A stretch of 64,000 nucleotides of DNA from positions 3,133-67,132 of the forward strand of contig JBHHWH010000001.1 in NCBI GenBank assembly GCA_046756405.1, read 5' to 3'. This DNA is from Acidimicrobiia bacterium. GTDB lineage: Bacteria > Actinomycetota > Acidimicrobiia > Spongiisociales > ZC4RG35. Shown one piece after another: positions 29,583 through 60,925 of this stretch. Numbering within the stretch: the first letter of the stretch is position 1; each line of letters begins with the position of its first letter. The notes below the pieces were generated by a model that was given only the letters and a program-made list of their open reading frames with translations, did not search any database and had not been told where the DNA came from. The position numbers were made by a program, and so were the translations under genes.

Positions 29583-32318
29583 CTAGACGGCTGGTGCCGG
29601 CCGGGCGGCGGGAAGGTCTCGCATCGCCGGTTGACGTTCCGGGGGGAGGGGTTCGATGCGCATCCTGGCATCCACCACGCTCACTCCTCGCCCGGGTTCG
29701 AGCACCTTGACCGGGTTGAGGTCCATCTCCGCCAACTCAGGCACTTCGGCGATCAGCGCCGATACCCGACACAGGGTCTCTACCAGGGCGTCGACGTCGC
29801 CCTTCGGCTGGTTGCGATAACCCTCCAACAGCTTCGACCCCCGGGTTTCGGCGATCATCTCGGCGGCGTCGGTGTTGGTGATGGGATGGGCGCGGAAGGC
29901 GACATCTCCCAACAGCTCCACGTAGATGCCGCCCAACCCGTACACGACCAGGGGACCGAAGTTGGGATCGAGGGTCATCCCGATCAGGGCCTCGTGTCCA
30001 CCTTCGACGAACTCCTGGACCAGCACCCCTTCAGCGTCTTCCACCGCCGAGATGACCCGCTGGTAGGCATCCGCCACCGCCTGGTCGCCCTCTACGCCGA
30101 TTACCACCCCACCTACATCTGACTTGTGCGTGGCCGCAACGGAGATCACCTTCAGCACTACAGGGCCGCCGATCTCTCCAGCCGCGGCCACTGCCTCCTC
30201 CGGACTGTGAGCAACCCGGGAAATAGGCCTGCGGAGTCCGGCGGAGGCCAGGATCTCTTCCACTTCCGCCGGCTCCAACCATCCCCCCGCTTCTCCGAGA
30301 CGCTCCAGGGCCTGGTCCACTACCCGACGGATCACTTCTACGGCCTCGGGGTCGAGTCGCCGCTCCTCGCCGGGATCCCGCCGCCGCCAGCGCCCATAGC
30401 GGACCGCCCGGGCCAGGGCCAGGGCGGCGTCCTCGGGAAAGACGTAGGTAGGAATGGAACGGGCCTTCCCTTCCCCTGCCAGAGCTTGAGCAGCCTCACC
30501 GCTCATGAAGACCGACAGCAGGGTCACCGGACCGTCGTATCTGGCCTGACAGTCCCGCAGCACAGCAGCAACCGCGTCGGAGCCTTCGGGCGAGGTAGGG
30601 ACGTAGATGACCATCACCGAATCCACCTCGTCCGAGCGGAGAAGGAGATCCGTGGCGTGACGAAACTCGTCGGGACCTCCCGAGGCAATCAGATCCACCG
30701 GGTTGGCGATGGACGCCTCTGCGGGCAAGGCGGCGCCGATGGCCTCGCCGAGGGCGGGAGACAAGGAAGGCAGCACCAGCCCGCTGGCCTCCAGAGCGTC
30801 GGCGGCCAGGATCCCCGGACCGCCGGCGTTGGTCACGATCCCCACCCGGACACCCCGGGGCACCGGCTGGTTGGCGAGCAGGTTGGCGGCGCCGAACAGC
30901 TCCTCGATGGTGTCCACCCTGATGACTCCTGCCTGACGGAACACGGCATCCACCGCTACGTCCGAGGAGGCCAGGGCCCCCGTATGCGACGATGCCGCCC
31001 GGCTCCCTGCCTGGGTACGGCCGGCCTTCACCGCCACGATGGGCTTGCGGCGACCGATACGCCGGGCGATGCGACTGAACTTACGCGGAGCGCCAAAGGA
31101 CTCCAGGTAGAGGGTGATCACGTCGGTCTGGGGATCGTCCTCCCAGGCGAGAAGCAGATCGTTGCCGCTGACGTCGGCCTTGTTCCCCACGGAGACGAAC
31201 TGAGAGATGCCGATGTTGTTGCGGCTGGCGTAGTCAAGGATCGCCACACCGAGGGCACCGGACTGGCTGGACATCGCTACGTTGCCTGCCGGGGGGTAGA
31301 TCGGTGAGAAGGTGCCGTTGAGTCGTACCGAAGGAGCGGTGTTGATCAGCCCCATGCAGTTGGGTCCCACCATGCGCATCCCGTACCGGCGCACGATATC
31401 GACCAGCTCAGCCTCCCGAGCCACCCCCTCCTCACCCACCTCGGAGAAGCCGGCGGAGATGACCACGATGCCTCGAACTCCCGCCTCGCCGCACTGGCGG
31501 GCCACCTCGAGGACAGACCCCTGGGGGATGACGATGAAGGCCAGGTCGACCTGGTCGGGAACGTCACCGATGGTGGGGTAGGCCCGTACCGACCGCACCA
31601 CCGGAGAGCGCGGGTTGACCGGGTAGAGGGGCCCGGTGAAGCCCGAGCTCAGCAGATTGCCGAAGAGCTTACCGCCGATGGAGTCGGGGTCGTTGGAGGC
31701 GCCGATGACCGCCACCGCCCGGGGGAAGAAGAGGGGTAGCACCGAAGCCGCCACCGCCCGCCGCTCCCGCTCCGCTTCAGCGGCCACGGCCCTCTCCGAG
31801 GGCTCAACAGGGAAGTCGACGGAATACACGCCTTCCTCCACGGTGCGGTGAAGCTCGTAGCCCGAGTTGCGGAAGACCCGCATCATCTGCCGGTTCTCGG
31901 CCAGGACATAGGCCTTGAACCGCTCGATCCCCTGGTCGCGGGCGTAGGTGGTGAGCAGTTCCAGGAGTTTCGTGCCCAGGCCCCGCCCCTGATGGTCGTC
32001 GGCCACTGCGAAGGCCACCTCGGCTACGAGAGAGTCGGGATCCTCCCGGTCGTAACGGCCCACGGCAACGATCTCCCCTTCGATCTCGGCTACCAGGGCC
32101 ATACGGTCCTCGTAGTCGACGTTGGTGAAGTGGGCCACTTCCCCGGGGTCGAGGGAATGTTTGATCCGGAAGAAACGGAAGTATCGGGACTGGGGGCCGA
32201 GACGCTCGAAGAAGGAGACGATGCCGTCTGCGTCGGTGGGGCGGATGGGACGGACCCGGGCGCCGCCTCCGTCACGGAGGACCACGTCGAGCTGGTACGC
32301 GGAGGGGTATTCGGCCAT
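29583..32318 (-). CDS. Bifunctional protein: N-terminal GNAT acetyltransferase fused to an ADP-forming acyl-CoA synthetase (CoA-binding, succinyl-CoA-synthetase-like and ATP-grasp domains); Pat/PatZ-like protein lysine acyltransferase.
   Basis: The N-terminal roughly 190 aa is GNAT (VADDHQGRGLGTKLLE). It is followed by CoA-binding AVIGASNDPDSIGGKLF, the ligase-CoA domain, and a C-terminal ATP-grasp (VVLKVISVAATHKSDVGGVVIGVEG). 911 aa. Confidence 0.8.
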   Translation of the reverse strand: MAEYPSAYQLDVVLRDGGGARVRPIRPTDADGIVSFFERLGPQSRYFRFFRIKHSLDPGEVAHFTNVDYEDRMALVAEIEGEIVAVGRYDREDPDSLVAEVAFAVADDHQGRGLGTKLLELLTTYARDQGIERFKAYVLAENRQMMRVFRNSGYELHRTVEEGVYSVDFPVEPSERAVAAEAERERRAVAASVLPLFFPRAVAVIGASNDPDSIGGKLFGNLLSSGFTGPLYPVNPRSPVVRSVRAYPTIGDVPDQVDLAFIVIPQGSVLEVARQCGEAGVRGIVVISAGFSEVGEEGVAREAELVDIVRRYGMRMVGPNCMGLINTAPSVRLNGTFSPIYPPAGNVAMSSQSGALGVAILDYASRNNIGISQFVSVGNKADVSGNDLLLAWEDDPQTDVITLYLESFGAPRKFSRIARRIGRRKPIVAVKAGRTQAGSRAASSHTGALASSDVAVDAVFRQAGVIRVDTIEELFGAANLLANQPVPRGVRVGIVTNAGGPGILAADALEASGLVLPSLSPALGEAIGAALPAEASIANPVDLIASGGPDEFRHATDLLLRSDEVDSVMVIYVPTSPEGSDAVAAVLRDCQARYDGPVTLLSVFMSGEAAQALAGEGKARSIPTYVFPEDAALALARAVRYGRWRRRDPGEERRLDPEAVEVIRRVVDQALERLGEAGGWLEPAEVEEILASAGLRRPISRVAHSPEEAVAAAGEIGGPVVLKVISVAATHKSDVGGVVIGVEGDQAVADAYQRVISAVEDAEGVLVQEFVEGGHEALIGMTLDPNFGPLVVYGLGGIYVELLGDVAFRAHPITNTDAAEMIAETRGSKLLEGYRNQPKGDVDALVETLCRVSALIAEVPELAEMDLNPVKVLEPGRGVSVVDARMRIEPLPPERQPAMRDLPAARPAPAV

Positions 32319-32467
32319 GACACAAACCTAATGGGTGCGGGTTCTCATCAACACCCACCCCAAGCGCCAGCCAGCGGTAGACTTAGCGAGGAATTATGGG
32401 GGAGTCACGAGGGTTCCCCCTAAGTCAGCGGGGAGGCGCTTAGGAGACTTCGTTCACCACCCGTCGT

Positions 32468-38130: not shown

Positions 38131-41100
38131 TCACTCCTCCGGCCACATCTGGCGGATGAACCCGATCAGGTCTTCCACCAGGGGCTCACCGGCGTGGATG
38201 AACAGCACCCCCTCTTTGGCCCGGAGCACAGCCTGGCCGCGGAGGCGGGCGAGCCGCACCTCCTGGGAGGGTTTGAGATCCACCGGGGAAAGCCGGATCT
38301 CGTGACGGAGCTTGACGATCTCGGACAGCCCCACACGGATCGCCTCCACCCGGAGCCGGGCCAGCTCCACCAGGGCCTGAGCCGCAGGAGGAAGAGGCCC
38401 GTAGCGATCCTCCCATTCGGCGGCCACATCGTCTACCTCGGGATGGGTGGTGGCCACCGCCAGGCGCCGGTAGGCCTCGAGCCGCTGCTCTTGGTCGGTG
38501 ACGTAGTCGTGGGGCAGGTGGGCGTCGACGGGGAGGTCGATGCGGATCTCCACCGGCTCCGCCTTCTCGATCGTGTTACCGGACATCTCCGCCACGGCCT
38601 CGGCCACCAGCTCGGCGTAGAGGTCAAAGCCCACCGCGGCAATGTGCCCGGACTGCACCTCGCCGAGAATCGACCCGGCCCCGCGAATCTCCAGATCTCT
38701 GAGGGCGAGCTGGAATCCCGAGCCCAGATCAGTCGCCTCCCCGATGGCCTCCAGACGCCGGTAGGCGTCCTCGGTTAGGGACCGGTCGGCGGGGTGAAAC
38801 AGGTAGGCGTAGGCCCGCTGGCTGGACCGGCCCACCCGACCCCGAAGCTGGTAGAGCTGAGCCAGGCCCAGCAGGTCGGCCCGTTCCACGATGAGGGTGT
38901 TCACCTTGGGCAGGTCGAGACCCGACTCGATGATGGTGGTGGCCACCAGCACGTCGTACTCGCCCGCCCAGAAGTCGATCATCACCTGCTCTAGCTGGCC
39001 TTCGGACATCTGACCGTGGGCCACGGCATACCGGGCGCCGGGGACGAGTTGTCGGAGCCGGGCCACCGCCCGGTCTATGGATTGGACCCGGTTGTGGACG
39101 TAGAAGACCTGGCCCTCCCGCAGCAGCTCCCGGCGGATCGCCGCCGAGACCGCCTGCTGGTCGTAGGGACCCACGTAGGTGAGGATGGGATGGCGGTCTT
39201 CGGGTGGGGTGCGGATGTGGGAGACGTCCCGGATTCCGGTGAGGGCCAGCTCCAGGGTGCGGGGTATGGGCGTCGCCGTCAGGGTGAGCACATCCACCCC
39301 TACCTTGAGCCGCTTCAAGGCATCTTTGGCGGCGACACCGAAACGCTGCTCCTCATCGATGACCAACAGACCGAGGCGGCGGAAGGTGATGTCGTCGGAG
39401 AGGAGGCGGTGGGTTCCGATGACGATGTCCACCTCCCCGGTGGCCAGCCCGGCGACCACCTTCCGCTGCTGGGCGGGGGTGAGGAACCGGGACAGCACCT
39501 CCACCCGCACCGGGTAGGGGGCGAACCTCTCGGTGAAGGTCTGGTGGTGCTGCTGGGCGAGGAGGGTGGTGGGGCAGAGCACCGCCACCTGGAAGCCATC
39601 CTGGACCGCCTTGAAGGCGGCGCGCAGCGCCACCTCGGTCTTGCCAAAGCCGACGTCCCCGAAGATGAGACGGTCCATCGGCTTCGGAGATTCCATGTTC
39701 GCCTTGACTTCAGCGATGGCCCGTAGTTGGTCGGGGGTCTCCTCGTAGGGAAAGGCAGCGTCCAGCTCCTGCTGCCAGGGGGTGTCCGGGGGGAAGGCGT
39801 GACCTTCAGCCAGGGCTCGTTTGCGGTGCAGCTCCACGACCTCAGCAGCTACCGCCGCCACCGCCTGGCGCACCCGTGACTTCTGCTCCGACCAGTCCTT
39901 TCCCCCCATCCGGGAGATGCGGGGAGCCTCGCCGCCGGTGTACTTCTTCACCGCGGCGAGTTGGTCGACAGGCACATATAGCTTGTCGCCACCGGCATAG
40001 GCGATCACCAGATAGTCCCGCTCCACTCCCACGATGGTCCGGGTCACCAACCCTTCGAAGCGGCCGATGCCGTGCTGGTAATGGACCACATAGTCGCCTT
40101 CGACCAGGTCGGCGTACTGCTCCCGGGGTCGGGCGACGGCCCTTCCCGCTCGACGGTGGGCGCGGCGCCTGCCGGCAATCTCCCGCTCTCCCAGCACCGC
40201 CACCCCTAGGTCGGGGGCGACGAAGCCCCGGTGGATACCCCCGGGGATCACTGCCGGACGTCGGTTGAGGAGCCCTTCGAGCCGCTCCAGGACCAGGCCC
40301 TGTTCGGCGAGGACGGAGGCAACACGATCTGCGGCGACTCCTCCGTCCATCGCCACCACCGGGGTGACGCCCTTCTCCTGGAGTCTCTTCAGTCCCACAG
40401 CCACCGACTCCGGCTCGCCGGCAACGGCGTCGAAACCGGTGATCCGCACCACGGGGTCGGCGGGACCCGTGGGCGCGGATGGCACACCCAGAAAGCGGCG
40501 ACGGTCAAGAATGTTCTCCAGGTCGAGGAAGAGGGCCGGGTGCTCTCCCGCCTCCGGTGCCGACTCCCCCCAGGTGGGCGCGAGGGCGGCGGCCAGTTCC
40601 GACTCCTCCTTGATCAGGTCCCGGCTGCGGTCTACGGATCGACTGGGTTCTATCACCACCAGGTGGGCGGTGGCCGGTAGCTCGTCTACCAGCGTGTGCT
40701 CTCCAGCGAGCCAAGGCAGCCAGGACTCAATCCCGGGGAAGAACTGGCCTTCGACAATCCGGTCCCAGGTGGAAGCGGCCCAGGGCTCGGCTGCCACCAG
40801 GTCCTGGGCCCGTTCCCGGACGAAGGGGTCAGGTCGTAGCTCCCGCGCCGGATAGGCAACTAGCTCCTCGACGATCTGCTCGGAGCGCTGGGTGGCCACA
40901 GAGAAGCGGCGGATCTCCTCGATCTCGTCACCCCAGAAGTCGAGACGCAGAGGGTGGTCCGCCTGGGCGGGGAAGACATCCACTATTCCGCCTCGGATGG
41001 CGAACTCGCCCCGGGCCTCGACCCGATCGGTGCGGTGGTAGCCGGCGGCAGCCAGGACCCGGGCCAGCTCGCCGAGGTCCACTTCGTCGCCGGGCCGGAG

Positions 41101-41487
41101 CCGGAGCGGGGCGACGGGCGAGGGGCTGAGACGCTGCACCGCGGCCCGGGTGCTCGCCACCACGATCACTGGCTCCCCTGAAGCGAGGAGATGACGGGCG
41201 CGGGCGCGGCGGGCCATGGTGGTGGTATTGGGCGAGACGTGCTCAAAGGGGAGCGTCTCCCAAGCAGGGGCCGGGACCACCCGGTTGGTGAACAGGGCCA
41301 GATCGTCCACCAGCTCCTCGGCTTCAACCTCTCCCGGGGCAACGACGAGCATGGTCTCCTCGATCTGACTGAACAGCCCGGCCAGGGCGAAGGCGCGTCC
41401 GGAAGGCGCCACCGCCCACACCGAACCCATCTCCGGCAAGGGCGCAGCGCGCCACACCTCGAGAAGGGGAGCTAACGGAGCCCTCAT
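38131..41487 (-). CDS. mfd: Transcription-repair coupling factor Mfd.
   Basis: 1118 aa. UvrB-homology N-terminus and the RNAP-interacting CarD/TRCF domain (HGIGRFEGLVTRTIVG). SF2 helicase motifs are DRLIFGDVGFGKTEVAL, DEEQRFG, LTLTATPIPRT and QLRGRVGR. A TRG motif and the C-terminal TRCF domain are also present. Confidence 0.95.
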   Translation of the reverse strand: MRAPLAPLLEVWRAAPLPEMGSVWAVAPSGRAFALAGLFSQIEETMLVVAPGEVEAEELVDDLALFTNRVVPAPAWETLPFEHVSPNTTTMARRARARHLLASGEPVIVVASTRAAVQRLSPSPVAPLRLRPGDEVDLGELARVLAAAGYHRTDRVEARGEFAIRGGIVDVFPAQADHPLRLDFWGDEIEEIRRFSVATQRSEQIVEELVAYPARELRPDPFVRERAQDLVAAEPWAASTWDRIVEGQFFPGIESWLPWLAGEHTLVDELPATAHLVVIEPSRSVDRSRDLIKEESELAAALAPTWGESAPEAGEHPALFLDLENILDRRRFLGVPSAPTGPADPVVRITGFDAVAGEPESVAVGLKRLQEKGVTPVVAMDGGVAADRVASVLAEQGLVLERLEGLLNRRPAVIPGGIHRGFVAPDLGVAVLGEREIAGRRRAHRRAGRAVARPREQYADLVEGDYVVHYQHGIGRFEGLVTRTIVGVERDYLVIAYAGGDKLYVPVDQLAAVKKYTGGEAPRISRMGGKDWSEQKSRVRQAVAAVAAEVVELHRKRALAEGHAFPPDTPWQQELDAAFPYEETPDQLRAIAEVKANMESPKPMDRLIFGDVGFGKTEVALRAAFKAVQDGFQVAVLCPTTLLAQQHHQTFTERFAPYPVRVEVLSRFLTPAQQRKVVAGLATGEVDIVIGTHRLLSDDITFRRLGLLVIDEEQRFGVAAKDALKRLKVGVDVLTLTATPIPRTLELALTGIRDVSHIRTPPEDRHPILTYVGPYDQQAVSAAIRRELLREGQVFYVHNRVQSIDRAVARLRQLVPGARYAVAHGQMSEGQLEQVMIDFWAGEYDVLVATTIIESGLDLPKVNTLIVERADLLGLAQLYQLRGRVGRSSQRAYAYLFHPADRSLTEDAYRRLEAIGEATDLGSGFQLALRDLEIRGAGSILGEVQSGHIAAVGFDLYAELVAEAVAEMSGNTIEKAEPVEIRIDLPVDAHLPHDYVTDQEQRLEAYRRLAVATTHPEVDDVAAEWEDRYGPLPPAAQALVELARLRVEAIRVGLSEIVKLRHEIRLSPVDLKPSQEVRLARLRGQAVLRAKEGVLFIHAGEPLVEDLIGFIRQMWPEE

Positions 41488-41495
41488 AACCGCGT

Positions 41496-41523
41496 ACCTA
41501 ATGCACCAGGGCCCCTATATGGA
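41496..41523. repeat. Copy 1 of a repeated roughly 30-nt motif, core CCCTGGTGCATTAGGTACG read on the minus strand, ending 7 nt before the mfd ATG.
   Basis: Minus-strand read: CCATATAGGGGCCCTGGTGCATTAGGTACGCGGTTATGAGGGC. It shares 19 identical contiguous nt plus flanking similarity with 48675-48715. Confidence 0.4.
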
Positions 41524-41551
41524 CCTTTGCGAAAAAAGGAAGGCCTCTCCC

Positions 41552-42523
41552 TCACTCCAGCAGCCCTTCGAAGCGGAACCACTCCAATGTCCGACGCAGG
41601 GTCTCCTCGATTGGGGTGTACACGAGGCCCAGCTCCCGGGTAGCCAGCGATCCGTCGTAACGGTGCCCGAACCGGATCACCCGGACCATCTCCCGGCACA
41701 GCGGCGCCGTCCGCCCCAGCAGCCCGAACACCCCTCCTACCAGCGTCCCCACCACCGACAGCGCCGCGGGAGGTATCCGCCGGGGACGCAGCTCTCTGCC
41801 CATCACCTTCGACAGCAGGTCCACCGCCTCCTCCATCGATAGGCTCACCCCAGAGAGCAGGTAGCGAGCACCGGGCCGTCCCCGCTCCGCGGCAAGGAGA
41901 TGGCCCCGGGCGCAGTCGTCGATGTCCACCAGGGAGAGATGGGTGTCGATGACAAAGCGGAGCCGGCCCCGGGCCGCGGCGAGGAGTATCGACCCGGTGC
42001 CGGTGGCGCGGCCGGGCCCCTGCACCGATGACGGGTTCACCACCACCACCTCCAGCCCGTCTGCCCCAGTGAGAGCGACCCGCTCGGCAGCATGTTTGGA
42101 GCGTTCGTATTCGGAGAGATACCAGCCTCGATGGCGGCTGTGCTCGGCCCCCAGGGTCCCCTGCTCCTCCCCAATGGTGACCGCCGAGGAGGTGTGGACC
42201 AGCCTCGCCACACCTGCTTGCCGACAGGCCTCCACCACCCGCCGGGTTCCCTCCACGTTCACCTGCCACATCAAATCCGAATCCCCGGTGCATAGCTCGT
42301 TGATCCCGGCGATGTGAAACACCCATTCCGCTCCGTCGACCAGAGCATCAACTGCGTCCCCGTCGAACAGATCGCCGGACACGGTCTGAGCCCCTAGCTC
42401 CTCCAACTTCGCCGAGGCTTCGCCCGAGCGGGCCAGTCCCGCCACCTCGTGACCGCCAGCTACCAGGTGTCTCACCACCGCCGTTCCGACCACTCCGGTG
42501 CCGCCGGTGACGGCGACCCTCAC
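41552..42523 (-). CDS. NAD-dependent epimerase/dehydratase (SDR family).
   Basis: Rossmann motif VAVTGGTGVVGTAVVRHL, and YxxxK in YERSKHAAE. Confidence 0.8.
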   Translation of the reverse strand: MRVAVTGGTGVVGTAVVRHLVAGGHEVAGLARSGEASAKLEELGAQTVSGDLFDGDAVDALVDGAEWVFHIAGINELCTGDSDLMWQVNVEGTRRVVEACRQAGVARLVHTSSAVTIGEEQGTLGAEHSRHRGWYLSEYERSKHAAERVALTGADGLEVVVVNPSSVQGPGRATGTGSILLAAARGRLRFVIDTHLSLVDIDDCARGHLLAAERGRPGARYLLSGVSLSMEEAVDLLSKVMGRELRPRRIPPAALSVVGTLVGGVFGLLGRTAPLCREMVRVIRFGHRYDGSLATRELGLVYTPIEETLRRTLEWFRFEGLLE

Positions 42524-43101
42524 GTCTTGATCTCGCTGGGCTCAGACCGGGTCACGTACCAGAACGAGGACAGGTATCCCCAAGCGGAGCCCAGGGTCAC
42601 AATCACTGCTAGGAGCATCACGTACTGGTCCAGATACCACAGGCCCCACCGCTCGGGAAGACGGAGGAAGGCCAGGAAGAGGGCAAGGAACTGGAAAACG
42701 GCCTTGAGCTTGCCCCAGGTGGAAGGCTTGATCAGCCCTCCTCCGTGGGCGGCGACGCCGCGGAGGGCCATGACGATGAACTCCCGGAAGATGATGACCG
42801 CCGCGGCCCAGATCGAGACCCGGTCCACCGAGACCAGCGCGATCAGGGTTCCGGTGACCAGCACCTTGTCGGCGGTGGTGTCCAGGAAGGCCCCCAGGGT
42901 GGTGCCCCCCGTGGTGCGACGGGCCAGGTAGCCGTCGAGGAAGTCGGTGAACACCGCCACGGCGAAGAGGGCAGCGGCATAACCGAAGCGGTGTTCGATC
43001 TGCTCGGCGCGGGCCAGCGCCATTATCGGTACCACCACGACGATTCTCGACAGGGCGAGCGCGTCAGGAACGGAGATTCTGCTCCTCCTCGACTTGGACA
43101 T
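42520..43101 (-). CDS. CDP-alcohol phosphatidyltransferase (PgsA-like).
   Basis: CDP-OH_P_transf motif DFLDGYLARR...GAFLDTTADKV on a multi-TM protein. Start at the Met of MSKSRRS. The TGA stop overlaps the downstream epimerase start. Confidence 0.75.
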   Translation of the reverse strand: MSKSRRSRISVPDALALSRIVVVVPIMALARAEQIEHRFGYAAALFAVAVFTDFLDGYLARRTTGGTTLGAFLDTTADKVLVTGTLIALVSVDRVSIWAAAVIIFREFIVMALRGVAAHGGGLIKPSTWGKLKAVFQFLALFLAFLRLPERWGLWYLDQYVMLLAVIVTLGSAWGYLSSFWYVTRSEPSEIKT

Positions 43102-43142
43102 GCCGATGATAAGCCGCCGGCAGGCCCATGGCCGAAGCCGTC

Positions 43143-44618
43143 TCAGGCCCAGTCGAAGGAACGCTTTAGGGCCTCCGTCCACCGGCCGTGGAGGTGGTCC
43201 CTTTCGGTTTCCTCCATTTCTGGCGTCCAGCGCCGATCCGCCTCCCAAAGGCTGCGCAGCTCGTCGGTTCCCGACCAGAACCCGACCGCCAGGCCAGCGG
43301 CGTAGGCCGCACCCAGAGCGGTGGTCTCAGCGACTTTGGGACGCACTACATCGACGCCCAGCAGGTCGGCCTGGAACTGCATGAGAAGCTCGTTGGCCGT
43401 CATCCCCCCGTCCACCCTCAGCTCCGCCAGCTCCACCCCCGAGTCGGAGACCATGGCGTCGAGGACGTCCTTGGTCTGATAGGCGGTGGCCTCCAGGGCG
43501 GCTCGGGCGATGTGGCCTTTGTTGGTGAACCGGGTGAGGCCGACGATCACACCCCGGGCGTCGGCCCTCCAGTGGGGGGCGAACAGCCCGGAGAAGGCAG
43601 GGACGAAGTAGACGTCACCGTTGTCCTCGACGCTGGCTGCTAGTTCCTCCACCTGGGGGGAGGTCTCGATGATCCCCAGGTTGTCCCGCAGCCACTGGAC
43701 GAGAGATCCGGTCACCGCTACCGAACCTTCCAAGGCGTAGACCGCCGGCTCATCTCCGAGGCGGTAGGCGACCGTTGAGAGCAAACCCGAAGTGGAGGGG
43801 ACCGGGGAGGACCCGGTGTTCAGCAGCATGAAGTTGCCGGTGCCGTAGGTGTTCTTAACCTCTCCGGGATCGAAGCAGACCTGACCGAACAGGGCCGCCT
43901 GCTGGTCGCCAAGCACCGCGGCGAGAGGAACTCCTTCCAGCGGTCCGGTGCAGTTTCCGATCACCCCCGACGAAGAGACGATCTCGGGCAGCATCGCCGT
44001 GGGAACTCCGACCTCCAGTGCCAGGTCCGAATCCCAGGTGGCGGTGGCCAGGTCCATGAGCAGGGTGCGGGAGGCGTTGGTGATGTCGGTGACGTGGCGG
44101 CCGGTCAGATTCCATACCAGCCAGGAGTCGATGGTGCCGAAGGCGAGCTCGCCCCGAGCCGCCCGGTCGTGGAGATCAAGGTGGTCGAGGAGCCAACGCA
44201 CCTTGGGCCCGGAGAAGTAGGTGGCCAGGGGCAGCCCGGTGCGGGAGCGGAACCGGTCGGGTCCCTCGTCTCCCTCGAGTTCTCGGCAAAGCTCCGCGGT
44301 GCGGGTGTCCTGCCAGACGATGGCGTTGCCCACCGGCTCCCCGCTGGCCCGGTCCCAAATGACGGTGGTCTCCCGCTGGTTGGTGATCCCGACCGCCGCC
44401 AGGTCGCCGGGGCCGACACCGGCCTTCTCCAGGGCGGCTACAACCACCTCGGTGGTCCGGGTCCAGATCTGAGCCGGGTCGTGCTCCACCCACCCGGGCT
44501 GGGGGAAGATCTGGTCGTGCTCCCGCTGGTCGACGGCCACCACCCGTCCGGCATGGTCGAAGATCATGAATCGGGTGGAGGTGGTGCCCTGGTCGAGGGC
44601 GCCTACCAACTCAGGCAT
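43143..44618 (-). CDS. glpK: Glycerol kinase.
   Basis: N-terminus [16 protein letters not shown], plus [13 protein letters not shown] and the FGGY C-terminal domain. 491 aa. Confidence 0.95.
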
Positions 44619-45189
44619 CCTTGCCCCTTCTGGCCGCCATCTCGACGGCCTTCTCCCGATCCTCGAGCCACTGCTCCACCACCGCAGCCGCGTCTGACAC
44701 CATGGCCTCCACCTCCGATCGTTCGCTCGGTTTGAAGTGGCTGAGAACGTAGTCGGCAGGGTCCATGCCGCGGGGAGGGCGACCCACCCCCACCTTGAGG
44801 CGCGAGAACTCGTTACTTCCCAGAGCCTTTTCCAATGAGCGGATTCCGTTGTGGCCTCCGCTCCCCCCGTCCACCTGGAGGCGGAGACGGCCGAAGGGCA
44901 GGTCGATATCGTCGTGGACTACGAGCAGGTCCTCGAGGGCTATCCCGTAATAGTCGAGGGCGGCCTTCACCGGCCCGCCCGACTCGTTCATGAAGCTGTT
45001 GGGAACGAAGAACAGGGTCCGGTCCGGTCCCGAACCCCAGCGAGCCTCGAAGCCCCGGAGACGCCGGGGTGACCGACCCAGAGCCTCCCCCAGGTGGTCA
45101 AGGACACGGCGGACCACCTCGTAGCCGAGATTGTGCCGGGTGCCTTCGTAGTCGGCTCCAGGGTTGCGGAGGCCGACGACGGCCCGCAC
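44611..45189 (-). CDS. pth: Peptidyl-tRNA hydrolase.
   Basis: [19 protein letters not shown] (catalytic His) and [11 protein letters not shown] start at 45189, just after the rplY stop; the ORF-track upstream extension is Arg/Lys-rich junk. Confidence 0.88.
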
Positions 45190-45193
45190 CGGG

Positions 45194-45865
45194 CTACTCG
45201 CCGCCTTCGCCTTCTGCCTCTTCCCCGGCAGGCTCCTCGCCCTCCGCGGCCTCTTCGCCTTCCGCAAGCTCCTCCTCCTCGAGTTCCTCGGCTTCCTCTT
45301 CGACCTCGGCCATGGGATGGGAGACGGAGACGACCACCGCGTCGGGATCTTCGAGGTAGGTGACACCTTCGATCTCGGGAAGGTCAGAGATGCGCAGCGA
45401 ATCACCGATCTCCAACTCGGAGACGTCGAGCTCGATGAAAGCGGGGATCTCCGTGGGCAGGGCTTCGATGCTGACCTGGCTCCGGGAGGGGCTTAAGATC
45501 CCACCCTCGCGCACTCCCACCGGGGTGCCTTCGAAGTGGACAGCCACCTCGGCGGTGACCCTCTGGGTCAGGTCGATGGTGACAAAGTCGATGTGGCGGT
45601 ACTCGTTGCGGTAGGGATGGCGGTCAATGACTCGGGCCATGGTGGTCAGCGTTTTGCCACCTTCGACCTCGAGTCTGATGATGGCGTTGGTCCCGGCCTC
45701 GGTGTGGAGAGCGACGTGGAGGTCGTGGGCATCCACCGCCACCGGGATCGGCTCGACGTCCTTGCCGTAGACGACGGCAGGCACCAGACCTTGGCGCCGG
45801 ATCCGGCGGGACTCCCGGGAACCCGGGGTGCGACCCACCTGGGCGCGCAGGCTGACTTCCGACAT
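45194..45865 (-). CDS. rplY: 50S ribosomal protein L25 / general stress protein Ctc, with an acidic C-terminal tail.
   Basis: L25 N-domain (LRAQVGRTPGSRESRRIRRQGLVPAVVYG) and Ctc beta-barrel C-domain, followed by an E/A-rich tail. Confidence 0.9.
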   Translation of the reverse strand: MSEVSLRAQVGRTPGSRESRRIRRQGLVPAVVYGKDVEPIPVAVDAHDLHVALHTEAGTNAIIRLEVEGGKTLTTMARVIDRHPYRNEYRHIDFVTIDLTQRVTAEVAVHFEGTPVGVREGGILSPSRSQVSIEALPTEIPAFIELDVSELEIGDSLRISDLPEIEGVTYLEDPDAVVVSVSHPMAEVEEEAEELEEEELAEGEEAAEGEEPAGEEAEGEGGE

Positions 45866-45902
45866 GAAACAGCTCCTTGGAGAAAGATGGGGTGGAAGTC
45901 AA

Positions 45903-46517
45903 TTATCGCGCCCGCGCCTCGGTTCCGCCAGACGAGAGCCGGCTGATCCAGGCGATGGTGCCATCCACGTAGCGGTCGGAGAGGGACTCAAGGGCCCATC
46001 CTCCACCCTTCAACCCGTGGCCGGCCCCTTCGAGGATCTCCACATCGGCGTTACGAAGGGAAGCAATGTGCTCCTCAAAGAGGTCCATGCGAGCCAAGGC
46101 GTCCCGTGTGCCCTGGAAGAAGAGCATCGGCACCTGGATTCGGGGCAGGTGCTCGATACGCAGCTTCTCCGGCTTCCCTGGGGGATGGAGGGGATAGGCG
46201 TAGAGGATCACTCCGTCGCAGGGATAGCCCTCGGCGGCGAGGCGGGTGCCGATCCGCCCTCCCATGGACCGCCCGGCGAGGAACAGGCGGTCGACCTTTG
46301 GCGCCAGTTCGTCGGCGGCGTCCCGGTGAGCCTCTAGGAGCTTGTTCACATGATCGGGGCGCTTCGACCCCCGTTCGACGTAGGGGTAATTGAAGGCGTG
46401 GACCGTATAACCCGCGGCCTCCAGCCCTTCCCTTATCCGCGCAATGAGGGGATGGTCCTTGTTGGTGCCCGCCCCGTGGGCGAGGAGGATTCCTGTAGCT
46501 GGGGTTTCGGTTTCCAT
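45903..46517 (-). CDS. Alpha/beta hydrolase (dienelactone-hydrolase-like / KANL3-type).
   Basis: LLAHGAGTNKDHP and the nucleophile elbow GRSMGG. Start at the Met of METETP. Confidence 0.7.
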   Translation of the reverse strand: METETPATGILLAHGAGTNKDHPLIARIREGLEAAGYTVHAFNYPYVERGSKRPDHVNKLLEAHRDAADELAPKVDRLFLAGRSMGGRIGTRLAAEGYPCDGVILYAYPLHPPGKPEKLRIEHLPRIQVPMLFFQGTRDALARMDLFEEHIASLRNADVEILEGAGHGLKGGGWALESLSDRYVDGTIAWISRLSSGGTEARAR

Positions 46518-46579
46518 GTGTGGCCATTCTGGCGCGGGGAACGGGCACACAAGCGCCAGCCGCCGTTACCGTCCCCTCG

Positions 46580-47257
46580 ATGCAGCTCGTCGTCCACAAC
46601 ACCCCCGAGGAGTTGGCCCGCGCCACGGCCGATCGCATCGCCTCGCTGATCCGCGGGGCCGGCGACGCCTTCTCCCTGGGCCTGGCCGGAGGAAGCACTC
46701 CGGCCGCCACCTACCGGCGCCTCGCCGAGGAGTCCCTTGAGTTGGGCCACGTCCAGGCCTGGCTGTCGGACGAGCGCTGGGTTCCGCCGGACGACGAGCG
46801 CTCCAACGGACGTATGGCCGCGATGACCCTCATCGATCGTGTGGGGGTCACCTTCCACCGGCCCCCTTGGGGTGCCGGGATGTCGCCCGCCGAGTCCGCC
46901 GCGGAATACGAGGCGGTGCTCCGCAGCATCCATCGGGCCGGCCCTCCTCATCTGGTGCTCCTAGGCCTGGGCGAGGATGGGCATACGGCTTCGCTGTTCC
47001 CCGGGACCCAAGCCCTCGAGATGGCGGAGCGCTGGTTCGTGGCCAACAAAGTTCATCAGCTTGGGGAGACCCGGCTCACCGCTACCTATCCGTTGCTGTG
47101 GTCGGCACGGCGGCTGATGGTGCTGGCCGTCGGCGAGCGGAAGGCCGAGGCGTTGAAAGAGTCCCTGGACGGGACCACCCCCGCCGGACGATTGATGGAA
47201 GGAGAAGCAGAAGTCGAATGGCACGTCGACACCGCCGCCGCATCCCTCATCTCCTGA
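46580..47257 (+). CDS. pgl: 6-phosphogluconolactonase.
   Basis: SLGLAGGSTP and LLGLGEDGHTASLFPG motifs. Start at the Met of MQLVVHN. Confidence 0.8.
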   Translation: MQLVVHNTPEELARATADRIASLIRGAGDAFSLGLAGGSTPAATYRRLAEESLELGHVQAWLSDERWVPPDDERSNGRMAAMTLIDRVGVTFHRPPWGAGMSPAESAAEYEAVLRSIHRAGPPHLVLLGLGEDGHTASLFPGTQALEMAERWFVANKVHQLGETRLTATYPLLWSARRLMVLAVGERKAEALKESLDGTTPAGRLMEGEAEVEWHVDTAAASLIS

Positions 47258-48066
47258 CGGCCTTTGCCCTGGTCCTCGCTGCCTGTGCGGGGAGTTCCCA
47301 GGCAACCACGACCACCTTTCCCCCGTCGACCACCACGGGTCCCGGCTACGAGGTCGGTGAACCCTTGGGAGGTATCGACGCCGAGATCCTGATCCCAGAG
47401 GGGGAAGGCCCCTTCCCCACGGTGGTCCTCGTCCACGGCGGGGGGTGGATCAGCGGGGAGCCCGCCTTCATCCGAGGGCTGGCGCTGTTCCTGACCGAAG
47501 CCGGCTATCTGACCATCAACACCGCCTACCAGCTCTCCAGCTTCGACAACCCCGGCTATCCGGCTGCCGTCGACGATGTGGCCTGCGCGGTCCGCAACGC
47601 CGCCGTGTACCCGCAGGGAGACGGGACAGTCACCCTGGTCGGCTACTCCGCGGGGGCTCAGATAGGTGCTCTGGTCGCCCTGACCGGAGACCGGTACGGG
47701 GCCGACTGCCCGGTGGAAGGGAGCGGTCTGCCCGACCGCTTCGTGGGGCTCGCAGGGCCGTACGACACCGACCGGATCGGCCGAGCGATCCTCCCCTTCT
47801 TCGGCGACAGTCCCACCAACCTCCCCCAGGCCTGGGAGGACGGCAACCCGCGGCGCCAGACCGCCGAGAACCCTGACCTGAAGGCGCTGATCGTCTACGG
47901 GGATATCGACCGGCTCGTCCACCCGGCCCTGGCCGTCGATTTCTATGAAGGACTCCTCGAAGGAGGGGTCGACGCCACCCTCCAGGAGGTCGAGGGAGCC
48001 GAACACTCCGACATGAGCGACCCGGAGGTGGTGGGCGACATCATCCTCTCCTGGCTGGAGGGCTAG
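47218..48066 (+). CDS. Secreted alpha/beta hydrolase lipoprotein (esterase/lipase-like).
   Basis: Lipoprotein signal MARRHRRRIPHLLTAFALVLAAC. Oxyanion HGGGW and nucleophile elbow GYSAGA. This start overlaps the pgl 3' end by about 40 nt, so the true start could be slightly different. Confidence 0.7.
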   Translation: MARRHRRRIPHLLTAFALVLAACAGSSQATTTTFPPSTTTGPGYEVGEPLGGIDAEILIPEGEGPFPTVVLVHGGGWISGEPAFIRGLALFLTEAGYLTINTAYQLSSFDNPGYPAAVDDVACAVRNAAVYPQGDGTVTLVGYSAGAQIGALVALTGDRYGADCPVEGSGLPDRFVGLAGPYDTDRIGRAILPFFGDSPTNLPQAWEDGNPRRQTAENPDLKALIVYGDIDRLVHPALAVDFYEGLLEGGVDATLQEVEGAEHSDMSDPEVVGDIILSWLEG

Positions 48067-48075
48067 CCTGGCGGT

Positions 48076-48447
48076 GTGCTGAGACGGATCGGTCTCACCT
48101 TTGGTCGCTTTGTCGGACTGGCGGTGACGCTGTATGGCTTGTGGTTGTTGGGGGTGACGGTTTTTCACCTCCTCACCGGCCCGGCCGATTACGAATCGAG
48201 CCTGATCGTGGTACTCATTCTGGGCTCTGGCGCTTTGTCGGCAGCGGGTGGCATCATCTACCTCCTGAGCTTCGACGGCTCACCCGCTTGGCGCAGCCGT
48301 AGGATCCGAGCCTGGGCGGTGGCATCGATGATCGTCGGAACCCTGCTCCCCAATAGCCTCAGCTTCTTCCTCTTCCCGATGACGCTGTTGGTCACAGCGA
48401 CGGTGGTATTCGACCGTTCCCTTATGGGTACGGATCAGGCGGCATAA
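48076..48447 (+). CDS. Hypothetical small membrane protein (3-4 TM helices).
   Basis: Hydrophobic helices FVGLAVTLYGLWLLGVTVF, LIVVLILGSGALSAAGGIIYLL and LSFFLFPMTLLVTATVVF. Confidence 0.5.
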   Translation: MLRRIGLTFGRFVGLAVTLYGLWLLGVTVFHLLTGPADYESSLIVVLILGSGALSAAGGIIYLLSFDGSPAWRSRRIRAWAVASMIVGTLLPNSLSFFLFPMTLLVTATVVFDRSLMGTDQAA

Positions 48448-48524
48448 CGCCAGCCGGGATCGCGTTCCCCATCCCACCACATCCGAATGTGATTGACAGC
48501 AGCGTCAGCAAAAGGAGGAGAGCC

Positions 48525-48608
48525 GTGGCGAGAGTGATCATCGTGGGAGACGGAGCGGGGGGACTGTCCGCGGCATTGTTCCTGGCCAAGAACGGCCACG
48601 AGGTCTAA
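48525..48608 (+). pseudogene. Remnant N-terminus (27 codons) of an FAD/NAD(P)-binding oxidoreductase.
   Basis: Intact SD AAAGGAGGAG, then a GTG start 7 nt later, then VARVIIVGDGAGGLSAALFLAKNGHEV followed by a stop. This is the GxGxxG Rossmann dinucleotide-binding start only; no downstream domain is present. Confidence 0.4.
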
Positions 48609-48674
48609 GTCTTCGGACGTCCCACAAACCCTCCTCAAGGTCAGGATGTCGCGATCACCACTTGAAACCACCCC

Positions 48675-48703
48675 CATATCCGGACCCTGGTGCATTAGGT
48701 ACG
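48675..48703. repeat. Copy 2 of the repeated motif CCCTGGTGCATTAGGTACG, read on the plus strand.
   Basis: Plus-strand read: CCATATCCGGACCCTGGTGCATTAGGTACGAGGGTTAGAGGCC. It aligns with the minus-strand read of 41496-41535, lying just past the FAD-oxidoreductase remnant and antisense to the 3' end of the short ALDH gene. Confidence 0.4.
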
Positions 48704-48707
48704 AGGG

Positions 48708-49553
48708 TTAGAGGCCCTTGGGGTGCCAGACCGTCTTGGTCTCGGTGAAGGCGGCGATCAGGTAGGGGCTTTGGTCGGGGACGTTGCTCGGGGCCACCAC
48801 CCGCTTCACGTTGTGGACCGCACCCTCCTGGATCCGCAGTAGCTGTTCCGGAGTGGCCCCGGAAGCGTCGATGGCATTCACATCCATGTGGTCGGCGAGG
48901 ACTGGCACCAGCTCCTCCTTGAAGCCGGTGAGGATGTTCACCACACCTCCGGGCACATCCGAGGTGTCCAGCACCTCGGCCAGGTCAACCGCCGCCATCG
49001 GTGCCTCCTCGGAGGCCAGCACCACCACCGTGTTTCCCGGGACCAGGATCGGTGCCAGGCGGGAGATGAGACCCAAAAGCGCCGGACGTTCCGGTGCCAC
49101 CAGTCCCACCACCCCGGTCGGCTCGGGTGAGGAGATGTTGAAGAAGGGCCCTGCCACCGGGTTCAGGTTCCCGTAAATCTGGGCGAACTTGTCACACCAG
49201 CCGGCGTACCAGACCAGCCGGTCGACCGATTCGGTCACCTCGCGGCGGGCGGCCGCCGGGGTGGCGCCCAGGTCCCGGAGGTGGTCGACGAAGGTTCCTC
49301 GCCGGTCCTCCAAGGTCTCGGCGATCCGGTAGAGGATCTGGCCCCGGTTGTAGCCGGTGCGTCCTGCCCAGCCCTCCTGGGCCTTTCGGGCGGTGCGGAC
49401 CGCGTCCCTCAGGTCCTTGCGGCTGGCCTGGGCGACCCGGGCCAGCACCTGACCGTCGGCGCCCAGGGCTGGATAGGACCTGCCCGACTCGGAGCGAGGG
49501 AACTTGCCCCCGATGTAGAGCTTGTAGGTCTTCTTGACCGCCAACCGGGCCAT
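48708..49553 (-). CDS. Truncated aldehyde-dehydrogenase-like protein (NAD-binding half only; lacks the catalytic Cys/Glu region).
   Basis: Aligns to the N-terminal and cofactor-domain half of the adjacent ALDH (WYAGWCDK matches YYAGWADK; PGNTVVVLASEE matches AGNTVVLKPAET) but ends before the ELGGK and Cys motifs. Its ATG overlaps the upstream ALDH stop (ATGA). Confidence 0.7.
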   Translation of the reverse strand: MARLAVKKTYKLYIGGKFPRSESGRSYPALGADGQVLARVAQASRKDLRDAVRTARKAQEGWAGRTGYNRGQILYRIAETLEDRRGTFVDHLRDLGATPAAARREVTESVDRLVWYAGWCDKFAQIYGNLNPVAGPFFNISSPEPTGVVGLVAPERPALLGLISRLAPILVPGNTVVVLASEEAPMAAVDLAEVLDTSDVPGGVVNILTGFKEELVPVLADHMDVNAIDASGATPEQLLRIQEGAVHNVKRVVAPSNVPDQSPYLIAAFTETKTVWHPKGL

Positions 49554-51025
49554 CAGTGCACCCCGTCCAGGTAGGCAAGGAGACCGTGACGGCCGCCCTC
49601 GCGTCCGAAGCCCGACTCCTTGTAGCCACCGAAGGGCGAGGTGGGGTCGAACTTGTTGTAGGTATTGGCCCACACCACACCGGCCTTCATCCGGTCGGCC
49701 ATCCACAGGATGCGGGAGCCCTTCGTAGTCCACACCCCAGCGGACAGGCCGTACGGGGTGTTGTTGGCCTTCTGTACCGCCTCGTCGGGGGTGCGGAAGG
49801 TAAGTATGGAGAGCACCGGACCGAAGATCTCCTCCTGGGCGATACGATGCGACTGGGACACCCCGGTGAACAGGGTGGGCCTAAACCAGAATCCCCGCCG
49901 GGGAAGGGGACAGTCTGGCTGGTACATCTCAGCGCCCTCGGCCTTGCCCGCCTCCACCAGCTCGGAGATCTTTTCCAACTGGGCGCGGCTGTTGATCGCT
50001 CCGATGTCGGTGTTCTTGTCCAGGGGGTCGCCCACCCGAAGGGTGGAGAGACGCCGTTTCAGCTTCTCCACGAACCGGTCGTGGATGTTCTCCTGGACGA
50101 AGAGGCGGCTGCCGGCACAGCAGACATGGCCCTGGTTGAAGAAGATCCCGTTTATCACCCCTTCGATGGCCTGGTCAAGGGGGGCGTCTTCGAAGATGAC
50201 GTGGGCGGCTTTGCCTCCCAGCTCCAGGGTGAGGCTCTTGGAGGTGCCGGCGAGGCGCGACTGGATGATCTTTCCCACCTCCGTCGATCCGGTGAAGGCG
50301 ACCTTGTCCACATCGGGGTGGCCCACCACCGCGGCACCGGTGGCGCCGGCGCCGGTGACAACGTTCAGCACTCCGGGGGGCAGACCGGCCTCGGTGGCGA
50401 TCTGAGCGAAGAGTAGGGCAGTCAGGGGGGTGGTCTCGGCGGGCTTGAGCACCACAGTGTTCCCAGCGGCCAGGGCAGGAGCCACCTTCCAGGCCAGCAT
50501 CATCAACGGGAAGTTCCACGGGATGACCTGGCCCGCCACCCCGAGGGGTCTCGGATTCAGGCCGGGGAAGGCGTACTCCAACTTGTCGGCCCACCCGGCG
50601 TAGTAGAAGAAGTGGGCGGCCACCAGGGGAAGGTCCACATCCCGGGACTCCTTGATCGGCTTGCCACCGTCGAGGGTCTCCAACACCGCCAGTTCCCGGG
50701 ACCGCTCCTGGATCATTCGGGCGATGCGGAACAGGAACTTGGCCCGCTCCTTCGGTGGCATCGGGCCCCACACCTCGGTGAAGGCTCGCCGGGCGGCGGC
50801 CACGGCGTCGTCCACGTCGGCGGGGCCCGCCTCTGCCACCTCGGCGAGGGTCTCCTCGGTGGCCGGGTTGATGGTGGGGAAGTACTTCCGCGACCGGGGA
50901 CGGCGGAATTCGCCGTCGATGAACAGCCCGTAGCGGTCGTCCACCGAAACGACGGCGGTGGACTCCTTCGACTCCGCATACTCCCAGAGGAGGGGCTCGT
51001 GGCGGGTGGTGGGAACTTTGGGCAT
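49553..51025 (-). CDS. NAD(P)-dependent aldehyde dehydrogenase.
   Basis: PWNFP, GNTVVLKPAE, LELGGK and FFNQGHVCCAGSR (catalytic Cys) motifs. 490 aa. Confidence 0.9.
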   Translation of the reverse strand: MPKVPTTRHEPLLWEYAESKESTAVVSVDDRYGLFIDGEFRRPRSRKYFPTINPATEETLAEVAEAGPADVDDAVAAARRAFTEVWGPMPPKERAKFLFRIARMIQERSRELAVLETLDGGKPIKESRDVDLPLVAAHFFYYAGWADKLEYAFPGLNPRPLGVAGQVIPWNFPLMMLAWKVAPALAAGNTVVLKPAETTPLTALLFAQIATEAGLPPGVLNVVTGAGATGAAVVGHPDVDKVAFTGSTEVGKIIQSRLAGTSKSLTLELGGKAAHVIFEDAPLDQAIEGVINGIFFNQGHVCCAGSRLFVQENIHDRFVEKLKRRLSTLRVGDPLDKNTDIGAINSRAQLEKISELVEAGKAEGAEMYQPDCPLPRRGFWFRPTLFTGVSQSHRIAQEEIFGPVLSILTFRTPDEAVQKANNTPYGLSAGVWTTKGSRILWMADRMKAGVVWANTYNKFDPTSPFGGYKESGFGREGGRHGLLAYLDGVH

Positions 51026-54060: not shown

Positions 54061-54172
54061 GGCGGTCGGTGGACGGAACGCTCCCTATGGCAGTGCGGCG
54101 TAGAGTTCCCACTCGCCGGTCGGCGACAACTCCGCCCAACTCGGCTCCGACAAACTCTACCCTACGCCCTCC

Positions 54173-55831
<1,659 letters not shown>

Positions 55832-59098: not shown

Positions 59099-59115
59099 GG
59101 TCTTGAGAGGGCGAG

Positions 59116-60910: not shown

Positions 60911-60925
60911 TCTTGAGAGGGCGAG

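Follow-up and report, generated by a model that had tools for sequence, protein, structure and literature searches.

A short intergenic cassette beside mfd and a short ALDH-family gene in Acidimicrobiia, with local duplication and probable gene conversion

Documented cases of concerted evolution usually concern ribosomal RNA operons, tuf genes, insertion sequences and gene families with hundreds of bases of homology. REP families comprise tens to hundreds of copies per genome and have an associated RAYT transposase, and the Gram-positive/actinobacterial LexA (Cheo/SOS) box reads CGAAC-N4-GTTCG. In Actinobacteria, a TANNNT hexamer is found ∼12 nucleotides (nt) upstream of leaderless starts (PMC3160421). 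Putative mobile promoters are homologous stretches of 50–100 nt located directly upstream of non-homologous genes (Matus-Garcia et al. 2012, PMC3488235); most of their families have two members, and their proposed origin is "random duplications mediated by recombination" (PMC3488235). Here we analyze 64 kb of Acidimicrobiia DNA from contig JBHHWH010000001.1 (the window, meaning the whole stretch of 64,000 nt), in which an initial annotation had noticed an identical 19-mer at two loci, one of them abutting the start codon of mfd (transcription-repair coupling factor). The 19-mer is part of a short cassette, present as copy c1 in front of mfd and as copy c2 behind a short ALDH-family gene. Our favored explanation, to which we assign a probability of roughly 60%, is a locally duplicated intergenic (terminator–promoter) cassette that is kept uniform by gene conversion.

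The 19-mer, CCCTGGTGCATTAGGTACG, has exactly two sites in the window, 41493–41511 on the minus strand and 48685–48703 on the plus strand. No third site exists there at ≤3 mismatches, and the sequence is absent from 100 dinucleotide-preserving shuffles (0 expected); the paired 19-mers are not a chance match. Rather than a lone motif, they form the center of the longest and best inverted repeat in the window, whose 41-nt arms (41482–41522 and 48674–48714) are 83% complementary. The two copies are in opposite orientation, 7.15 kb apart, and each has a G+C content of 57% compared with ∼65% for the window, in agreement with the locally AT-richer DNA described for them. The strings quoted in the initial annotation are correct, and its position for copy 2 holds to within 1 nt, whereas copy 1 had been placed ∼13–16 nt too high (the quoted string runs from 41522 to 41480, not from 41535 to 41496). 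Copy 1 is indeed the immediate 5′ flank of mfd.

A gap-free alignment of eight copies over 44 columns (A2) reveals a common architecture. The cassette is 45–58 nt long and contains, in this order, a T-run with a CGC(C)AAAG box, a hairpin (P1), a 3-nt spacer, a palindrome (P2) and the sequence CGCGGTT, to the right of which lies either the mfd start (c1) or the ALDH stop (c2). P1 has a G+C-rich stem of 5–7 bp around a CATATG-like loop, with A2 columns 7–11 pairing with 18–22; in P2, columns 26–31 pair with 33–38, and the right half corresponds to a -10-like TAGGTA. The P1 stems vary in sequence yet still pair (GGCCC/GGGCC, CTCTCA/TGAGAG, GCTCCCA/TGGGAGC, and GGTCC/GGGCC with one T·G pair), and compensatory two-sided changes are seen in three of the five P1 pairs. 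Paired cells amount to 83%, compared with 75% in shuffles (1 of 500 reaches the observed value) and with 20–47% when the partners are slid by 1–3 columns.

In the window, c1 (41488–41545, minus strand) contains all of these elements, including the T-run and a CGCAAAG box, and fills the 64-nt gap between the stop codon of an epimerase-family gene and the mfd ATG. Its P1, GGTCC-ATATAG-GGGCC with one T·G pair, is located at 41510–41525, and its P2, GTGCAT-T-AGGTAC, at 41494–41506 (both minus strand). Copy c2 (48673–48708, plus strand) retains the right part of P1, P2 and the sequence CGAGGGT, and extends as far as the ALDH stop. The two flanking genes converge on it, with the remnant of an FAD-dependent gene on its left and the ALDH stop on its right. 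It had been described as antisense to the 3′ end of the ALDH gene, which is true for the last ∼7 nt of the similarity; the rest lies just downstream of the stop codon (48708–48710). A covariance model built from the 44 A2 columns (R1) scores c1 at 55.8 bits (41488–41531) and c2 at 43 bits (48665–48708) and finds nothing else in the window, the next match having 11.8 bits (E = 0.08).

We compared the window genome (W) with three relatives, which we term R (L017/L019), S (L018/L104) and T (L105, GCA_012961555.1). Identity to W is 95% for the short ALDH and 91% for Mfd in R, 91 and 89%, respectively, in S, and 92% for the short ALDH in T. R is syntenic with W across the whole ALDH-to-mfd stretch at ∼85% nucleotide identity, and carries c2 at 9645–9702 and c1 at 17400–17457 of L019. 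Its c2, TTTTTCCGCAAAGGCCCACATGCGGGCCCTGGTGCATTAGGTTCGGGTTAGAGG, is located between the short ALDH stop and the stop of the FAD gene. In S, c1 is found in L018 and c2 in L104, and in S as in T, c2 occupies the corresponding position behind the short ALDH gene; the mfd region of T lies outside the sequence compared, and T is scored for c2 and for a third copy, c3 (see below). The presence of c1 and c2 in W, R and S, and of c2 and c3 in T, shows that the duplication predates these species and that the cassette pair is older than these four Acidimicrobiia lineages. The duplicated unit is longer than the 41 nt seen within the window, because W c1 (41538–41479) aligns with R c2 over 60 nt at 85% identity in blastn, T-run and CGCAAAGG box included. 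Homology of the window c2 with R c2 begins only at 48673. Immediately before it, 68 nt of filler or decayed DNA (48605–48672, plus strand) replace 494 nt of R, a stretch with the bulk of the FAD gene, the T-run, the CGCAAAG box and the left P1 arm; the window c2 is therefore a 5′-truncated copy.

Three relatives at ∼80% identity (L100–L102) have the same genes in synteny but a different spacer in front of mfd, which is 176–220 nt long, unrelated in sequence and contains a TACCAT box 11 nt before the ATG. The DNA after their short ALDH gene is likewise unrelated to the cassette, and a 291-residue gene of unknown function takes the place of the FAD gene. The FAD gene is convergent to the short ALDH gene in W, R, S, T, L020 and L022, and co-directional with it, with overlapping stop and start codons, in relatives at 68–72% identity (L028 6110–6670; L035 780–1335). 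As orientation and presence of the FAD gene differ among relatives, the 3′ side of the short ALDH gene is a rearrangement hot spot.

P2 exists in two forms. Type I, the ancestral form, is a perfect 13-bp palindrome, GAACCTnAGGTTC, which occurs four times in 979 kb compared with 0 in shuffles, always between genes (S c1, T c2, and the spacers of metG in L102 and of a hydrolase gene in L034); it is nearly perfect in S c2. Type II reads GTGCATTAGGTAC or GTGCATTAGGTTC and is present in W c1, W c2 and R c2, the window form being GTGCATTAGGTAC, and it is further degraded in R c1. In an identity matrix over 40 aligned columns, W c1 shares 34 columns with R c2 and 28 with its orthologue R c1, and S c1 shares 30 with T c2, 28 with S c2, 24 with W c1 and 21 with R c1. 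The copies group by lineage rather than by locus and share derived states in each lineage. The P2 type has switched at both loci together, being type II in W and R and type I in S, and the T-run/CGCAAAGG version in W c1 is that of R c2, whereas R c1, the orthologue of W c1, has CTATTCCGCCAAATG. As copies within a lineage are more alike than orthologues, we infer concerted evolution. The initial annotation had suggested a leaderless-mRNA promoter module. Promoter constraint alone cannot explain the 19-nt identity, because the identical core consists mostly of spacer and the lineage-specific P2, where orthologous mfd promoters differ; we ascribe it to common ancestry together with concerted evolution. 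The initial annotation was essentially right with its alternative, in which the repeat is a piece of a small duplicated element.

The two 19-mers are thus likely to mark the centers of two paralogous copies of a short intergenic cassette that is confined to one clade of uncultured Acidimicrobiia. Repeated short-tract gene conversion among nearby copies, by ectopic recombination or templated repair, would homogenize them, and the conversion tracts would leave 19 nt identical while the flanks differ. The cassette shares with ectopic gene conversion of short dispersed repeats that paralogues are more alike than orthologues and that an identical core is embedded in diverged flanks. It differs from the usual cases of gene conversion in that its substrate is only ∼45–60 nt long and ∼85% similar, which is close to the lower limit of RecA-dependent exchange. 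A perfect 19-base repeat at seemingly unrelated loci may accordingly arise without a shared regulator, by duplication of a local cassette and sequence exchange, and the locus would provide a clean small-scale example of the reuse of a promoter/terminator spacer and of concerted evolution on a ∼50-nt substrate in a poorly studied class.

When applied to 783 kb of related loci, R1 recovers the c1 and c2 orthologues and two other sites. One is located in L102 between the stop of an EamA-family gene and the metG start (43.8 bits) and has the same P1–P2 register. This copy is a composite (5450–5509), in which inverted P2 copies, CGAACCTGAGGT and ACCTCAGGTTCG, flank a GCCC-AAATAC-GGGC hairpin; no element of this type is found in the same spacer of L100, L101, W or R. 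The other is c3 in the spacer between the divergent 6-phosphogluconolactonase and Abhydrolase_11 genes of T (L105 2999–3042; 21 bits, E = 8.5e-4). Here the P2 region is type II, and the hydrolase gene is called from the ATG within CATATG, so that its first ∼10 codons (MGPGASETRR) come from the cassette; the N termini in W (METETPATG) and R (MANKKSKIG) are unrelated. The corresponding site in W (46518–46580, minus strand; hydrolase ATG at 46517–46515, CAGAAT box at 46531–46526) bears a faint, diverged resemblance to the cassette, as does the site in R, and the type I P2 of L034 lies in this same hydrolase spacer.

Every copy that we have seen is located in one neighborhood of ∼14 kb, which comprises metG, the ALDH operon, the 6-phosphogluconolactonase/hydrolase pair and mfd. 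There is no copy in the ∼56 kb of the window outside this neighborhood, nor in ∼100 kb of close relatives outside it, and an nhmmer profile of five copies returned no new ones except the L102 site. The 17-mer CCTGGTGCATTAGGTAC has 16 single matches in unrelated taxa among 185,579 species genomes, which is about the number expected by chance; none is in Acidimicrobiia, and the source genome itself is apparently outside this collection. An 18-mer match to an IMG/VR viral contig (L103 513–530) lies in low-G+C coding DNA with no flanking similarity and was dismissed as chance. With Rfam 15, the window yields only a tRNA at gathering score, and there is no credible match to the cassette in W, R, S or T (E ≤ 1–10).

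The position of the -10-like box of c1 is kept in mfd orthologues: TAGGTA-7-ATG in W, as correctly noted in the initial annotation (box 41500–41495, ATG 41487–41485), TAGGTT-7-ATG in S and TAGGAA-7-GTG in R. Counted from the mfd ATG, the first T of TAGGTA is at -13; the hexamer has A at position 2, and A instead of T at position 6. In the window, TANNNT hexamers cluster at -12/-13 before several genes, and other genes have an AGGAGG Shine-Dalgarno sequence. For example, a gene for a 914-residue protein with Pat-like GNAT and ADP-forming acyl-CoA synthetase parts (29583–32327) is preceded by CATTAGGTT-TGTGTC-ATG (32328–32345, minus strand); its TAGGTT matches the consensus with the first T at -12, and the heptamer ATTAGGT is common to this site and the repeat. 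TACCCT precedes the metG ATG by 6–9 nt in W, R, L100 and L102, and CAGAAT-8-ATG or TAGATT-7-ATG is found at the hydrolase gene. In this clade, mfd, metG and the hydrolase gene thus all have conserved starts with a -10-like box 6–11 nt ahead of them. Taken together, the kept position of the box, the frequency of such layouts in the clade and in the window and the spacing reported for Actinobacteria (PMC3160421) make a leaderless or nearly leaderless mfd mRNA from c1 plausible. The c1 promoter candidate resembles the described leaderless promoters in box position, in the lack of a Shine-Dalgarno sequence (an AGG triplet is the only candidate), in the consensus TAGGTT of S and in a layout that other window genes share. 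It differs from them in that TAGGTA has no final T and that the identical region far exceeds what a -10 box needs.

We propose that c1 could function as a compact terminator–promoter spacer. Its P1 would end the transcripts of the upstream FGGY kinase, CDP-alcohol transferase and epimerase genes, and the right half of P2, TAGGTA in W and TAGGTT in S, would be the -10 box from which mfd is transcribed with no or almost no leader; the prediction for mfd expression is hence a leaderless transcript behind a TAGGTN box. P1 is located where the upstream operon should terminate (c1, L102) or between convergent genes (c2), and in W c1, R c2 and T c2 the sequence that follows it on the ALDH-sense strand is CUUUG. 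Position and CUUUG tract make a hairpin terminator the best inference for P1. The distribution of G·U versus C·A pairs in P1, taken as a cue to the transcribed strand, gave few and contradictory observations (the L102 copy).

Several observations weigh against this picture. TAGGTA in W and TAGGAA in R lack the conserved final T of TANNNT, and a consensus scan calls no sigma-70-type promoter at either copy. Behind P1, the ALDH-sense strand has no more than three U in a row and the mfd-sense strand no U-run at all, and a terminator scan of the region calls only a separate, weak terminator-like hairpin with a T-run at 41553–41539, not P1. In single-sequence folding, neither copy folds better than shuffles on either strand, and the covariation comes from eight related sequences, from which the structure itself was read. 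The conservation of c2 between W and R (∼84–85%) equals the regional average and by itself is no proof of selection. Copy number in the source genome rests on 64 kb. Finally, part of the similarity within lineages could stem from co-evolution with a DNA-binding protein and not from gene conversion.

The last point leads to the rival that survives best, although we regard it as unlikely: P2 (GAACCTnAGGTTC, with flanks CG..CG) would be an operator for a single dimeric transcription factor, with mfd, the ALDH/FAD junction, metG and the hydrolase gene as its joint targets, and the likeness within lineages would reflect operators that evolve together with the specificity of their factor. The four strictly intergenic occurrences of the perfect palindrome fit this idea, as does the retention of the sequence across loci and across genomes down to 66% ALDH identity. 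However, the left half-site is degenerate in W and R, with deviations at 4–5 of the 12 specified positions, and no more than two of six palindromic pairs are left in R c1. The position of P2 is also inconsistent, as it overlaps the -10 box at mfd, lies 5–12 nt upstream of the -10 box at metG (L102) and at the hydrolase gene (L034), and follows a stop codon at c2. The adjacent genes include no regulator, and P1 stands at a fixed distance from P2; that P1 travels with P2 in this way argues for the copying of a unit rather than for the independent evolution of operators.

As a specific candidate we considered LexA, since ancestral P2 with its flanks, CGAAC-CTnAG-GTTCG, has both arms of the Cheo/SOS box, and mfd, behind c1, is a DNA-repair gene. 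The spacer is 5 nt in S, T, L102 and L034 and not the 4 nt of LexA, the window copies have GGTGC as left arm and have lost the dyad, and other P2 copies follow a stop codon or precede metG and the hydrolase gene. N4 boxes with ≤1 mismatch are not enriched in the window (4 compared with 2.8 expected), and the assignment was rejected. IdeR, Rex, NrdR, ClgR, CRP and dif-like sites were considered informally and dropped as well, as their half-sites or spacing appear to be at odds with P1 and P2.

Quite unlikely in our view is a small non-autonomous mobile element of REP/REPIN or MITE type, mobilized in trans, with c1, c2, c3 and the metG copy as separate insertions. Its appeal lies in the patchy distribution: the cassette is present before metG in L102 and not in L100/L101, W or R, it is seen at the hydrolase start in T and not clearly in W or R, and the ∼80% relatives have it at neither the mfd nor the ALDH locus. 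As in REP, BIME and REPIN sequences, short imperfect palindromes are found at gene ends and in spacers of convergent genes and operons, the structure is kept while stem sequences vary, and the L102 copy forms a REPIN-like doublet of inverted P2 units around a P1-like hairpin. In contrast to these families, the cassette has two to three copies, two of them in 64 kb and none outside the ∼14-kb neighborhood in any sampled genome, and the CCTGGTGCATTAGGTAC scan gave only chance matches. The neighborhood genes include no transposase or RAYT-like gene, and there are no recognizable terminal inverted repeats beyond P1/P2, no target-site duplications and no flanking direct repeats. The cassette takes the place of a spacer of similar length at each site and adds none.

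Functionally, putative mobile promoters are the closest match, given that the cassette is located before mfd, before Abhydrolase_11 in T and before metG in L102. They were defined as copies of ≥50 nt and ≥80% identity in one genome, within ∼50 nt upstream of non-homologous coding starts (PMC3488235). The window pair, with 41 nt at 83% in a gap-free alignment, is shorter than this. Since the window c2 is truncated, the 60-nt alignment at 85% exists only between W c1 and the c2 of another genome. In addition, c2 lies at the ALDH stop and not before a coding start, unlike the T hydrolase and L102 metG copies, which do precede coding starts, and all cassette copies are confined to one ∼14-kb neighborhood.

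For c2, the favored cassette reading would assign different roles in different genomes. In the relatives, c2 may serve mainly as a hairpin terminator common to the convergent ALDH operon and FAD gene, with its -10-like box pointing into the ALDH antisense strand; in the window, it lost its left half together with the deletion of the FAD gene. The initial annotation had instead suggested a working antisense or orphan promoter, giving an RNA antisense to the ALDH operon. Copy c2 does carry the -10-like box of c1, which in R is a consensus TAGGTT, and it persists in four lineages. Yet no start codon or conserved open reading frame follows it, the S and T copies read CAGGTT, everything upstream of mid-P1 is deleted in the window genome, its conservation does not exceed the regional background, and no promoter is called there, and we find such a promoter distinctly improbable. 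In view of the background-level conservation, the missing start codon and the truncation, the window c2 is probably a relic in decay and could at most act as a weak antisense promoter, and for c2 in general a role as terminator or relic is likelier than one as promoter. The repeat is a real but fairly ordinary piece of genome evolution, for which the promoter idea is plausible at the mfd copy only.

Very unlikely is the notion that the cassette is a self-contained, locally propagating expression module, in which a CGCAAAG-box promoter, a leaderless mini-open reading frame and a factor-binding P2 form one 55-nt unit. The mini-frame would run from the P1 CATATG to a TGA at the start of the next gene, and the unit would supply transcription, translational coupling and regulation to the gene behind it. 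S and R do have a 10-codon frame from the CATATG ATG in P1 to a TGA that overlaps the mfd start (ATGA/GTGA; L018 1764–1799, L019 17427–17462), and the hydrolase gene of T is annotated to start at the equivalent ATG. In the window genome, the frame is absent (ATA TAG), and its openness over nine codons is statistically unremarkable.

A single neutral micro-duplication, in which filler DNA at a rearrangement junction made c2, drift followed and the 19 nt are a lucky undiverged stretch, is highly improbable: c2 does lie in a rearrangement-prone spot, where the content between the short ALDH and BD-FAE hydrolase genes varies (FAD plus membrane gene, or the 291-residue gene) and where microhomology with the ALDH stop region could have formed the junction at the right edge, GGTTA|GAGG, but it would not account for copies that cluster by lineage and not by locus, for a P2 type that switched at both loci together in W/R relative to S, for the R c2 T-run/CGCAAAGG form in W c1, or for the compensatory changes in P1.

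Two larger rearrangements were also considered and rejected. A segmental duplication, or a 7-kb inversion bounded by the repeats, disagrees with the gene order and orientation between the repeats, which is the same in W, R, T and the ∼80% relatives, and the similarity ends after ∼60 nt. An invertible DNA switch was dropped, as there is no recombinase among the genes between the repeats, and the segment has the same orientation in W, R, T and L100–L102. The genes in this interval are metabolic or housekeeping genes (L25, Pth, FGGY kinase and others).

The best protein matches of the window genes are from Acidimicrobiia metagenome-assembled genomes. The mfd gene (38131–41487, minus strand) encodes a protein of 1118 residues with the Pfam domains UvrB_inter, CarD_TRCF_RID, DEAD, Helicase_C and TRCF. 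Its homologues share 75–91% identity at 100% coverage, the N terminus aligns with relatives from residue 1, and the position of the start agrees with orthologues. Upstream of c1 lies the NAD-dependent epimerase/dehydratase-family gene (41552–42523, minus strand; assigned by Pfam). The short ALDH-family gene (48708–49553, minus strand; Pfam) encodes 281 residues and is intact. The initial annotation had read it as decayed, which is wrong, as it belongs to a conserved family of 280–282 residues with hundreds of full-length homologues at 100% coverage, and its ATG overlaps the stop codon of a 490-residue ALDH gene (49553–51025) by one base. The 27-codon FAD remnant that had been described next to c2 is real. 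This FAD/Pyr_redox_2 fragment (48525–48608, plus strand), which ends with a premature TAA, is 87% identical to residues 1–31 of the intact 183-residue gene of a relative. The gene is intact in R, S and T, and on this comparison it is a pseudogene in the window genome only, among W, R, S and T. For annotators, this means that the short ALDH gene should be treated as genuine and the FAD gene as a strain-specific pseudogene, and that such a repeat is no regulon signal without genome-wide counts.

Two further features were noted elsewhere in the window. Tandem paralogous genes for family 5 solute-binding proteins (SBP_bac_5; 59107–60852 and 60917–62605, plus strand) share blocks of 70–91% nucleotide identity, and the 30 nt before each ATG match at 29 of 30 positions. 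At 54150–54200 (plus strand), the window metG has two in-frame ATGs 21 nt apart, each behind a (T)ACCCT/CCCTAC box, compared with a single start in R (L019 4235–4260), and the window form represents a small 5′ duplication or extension.

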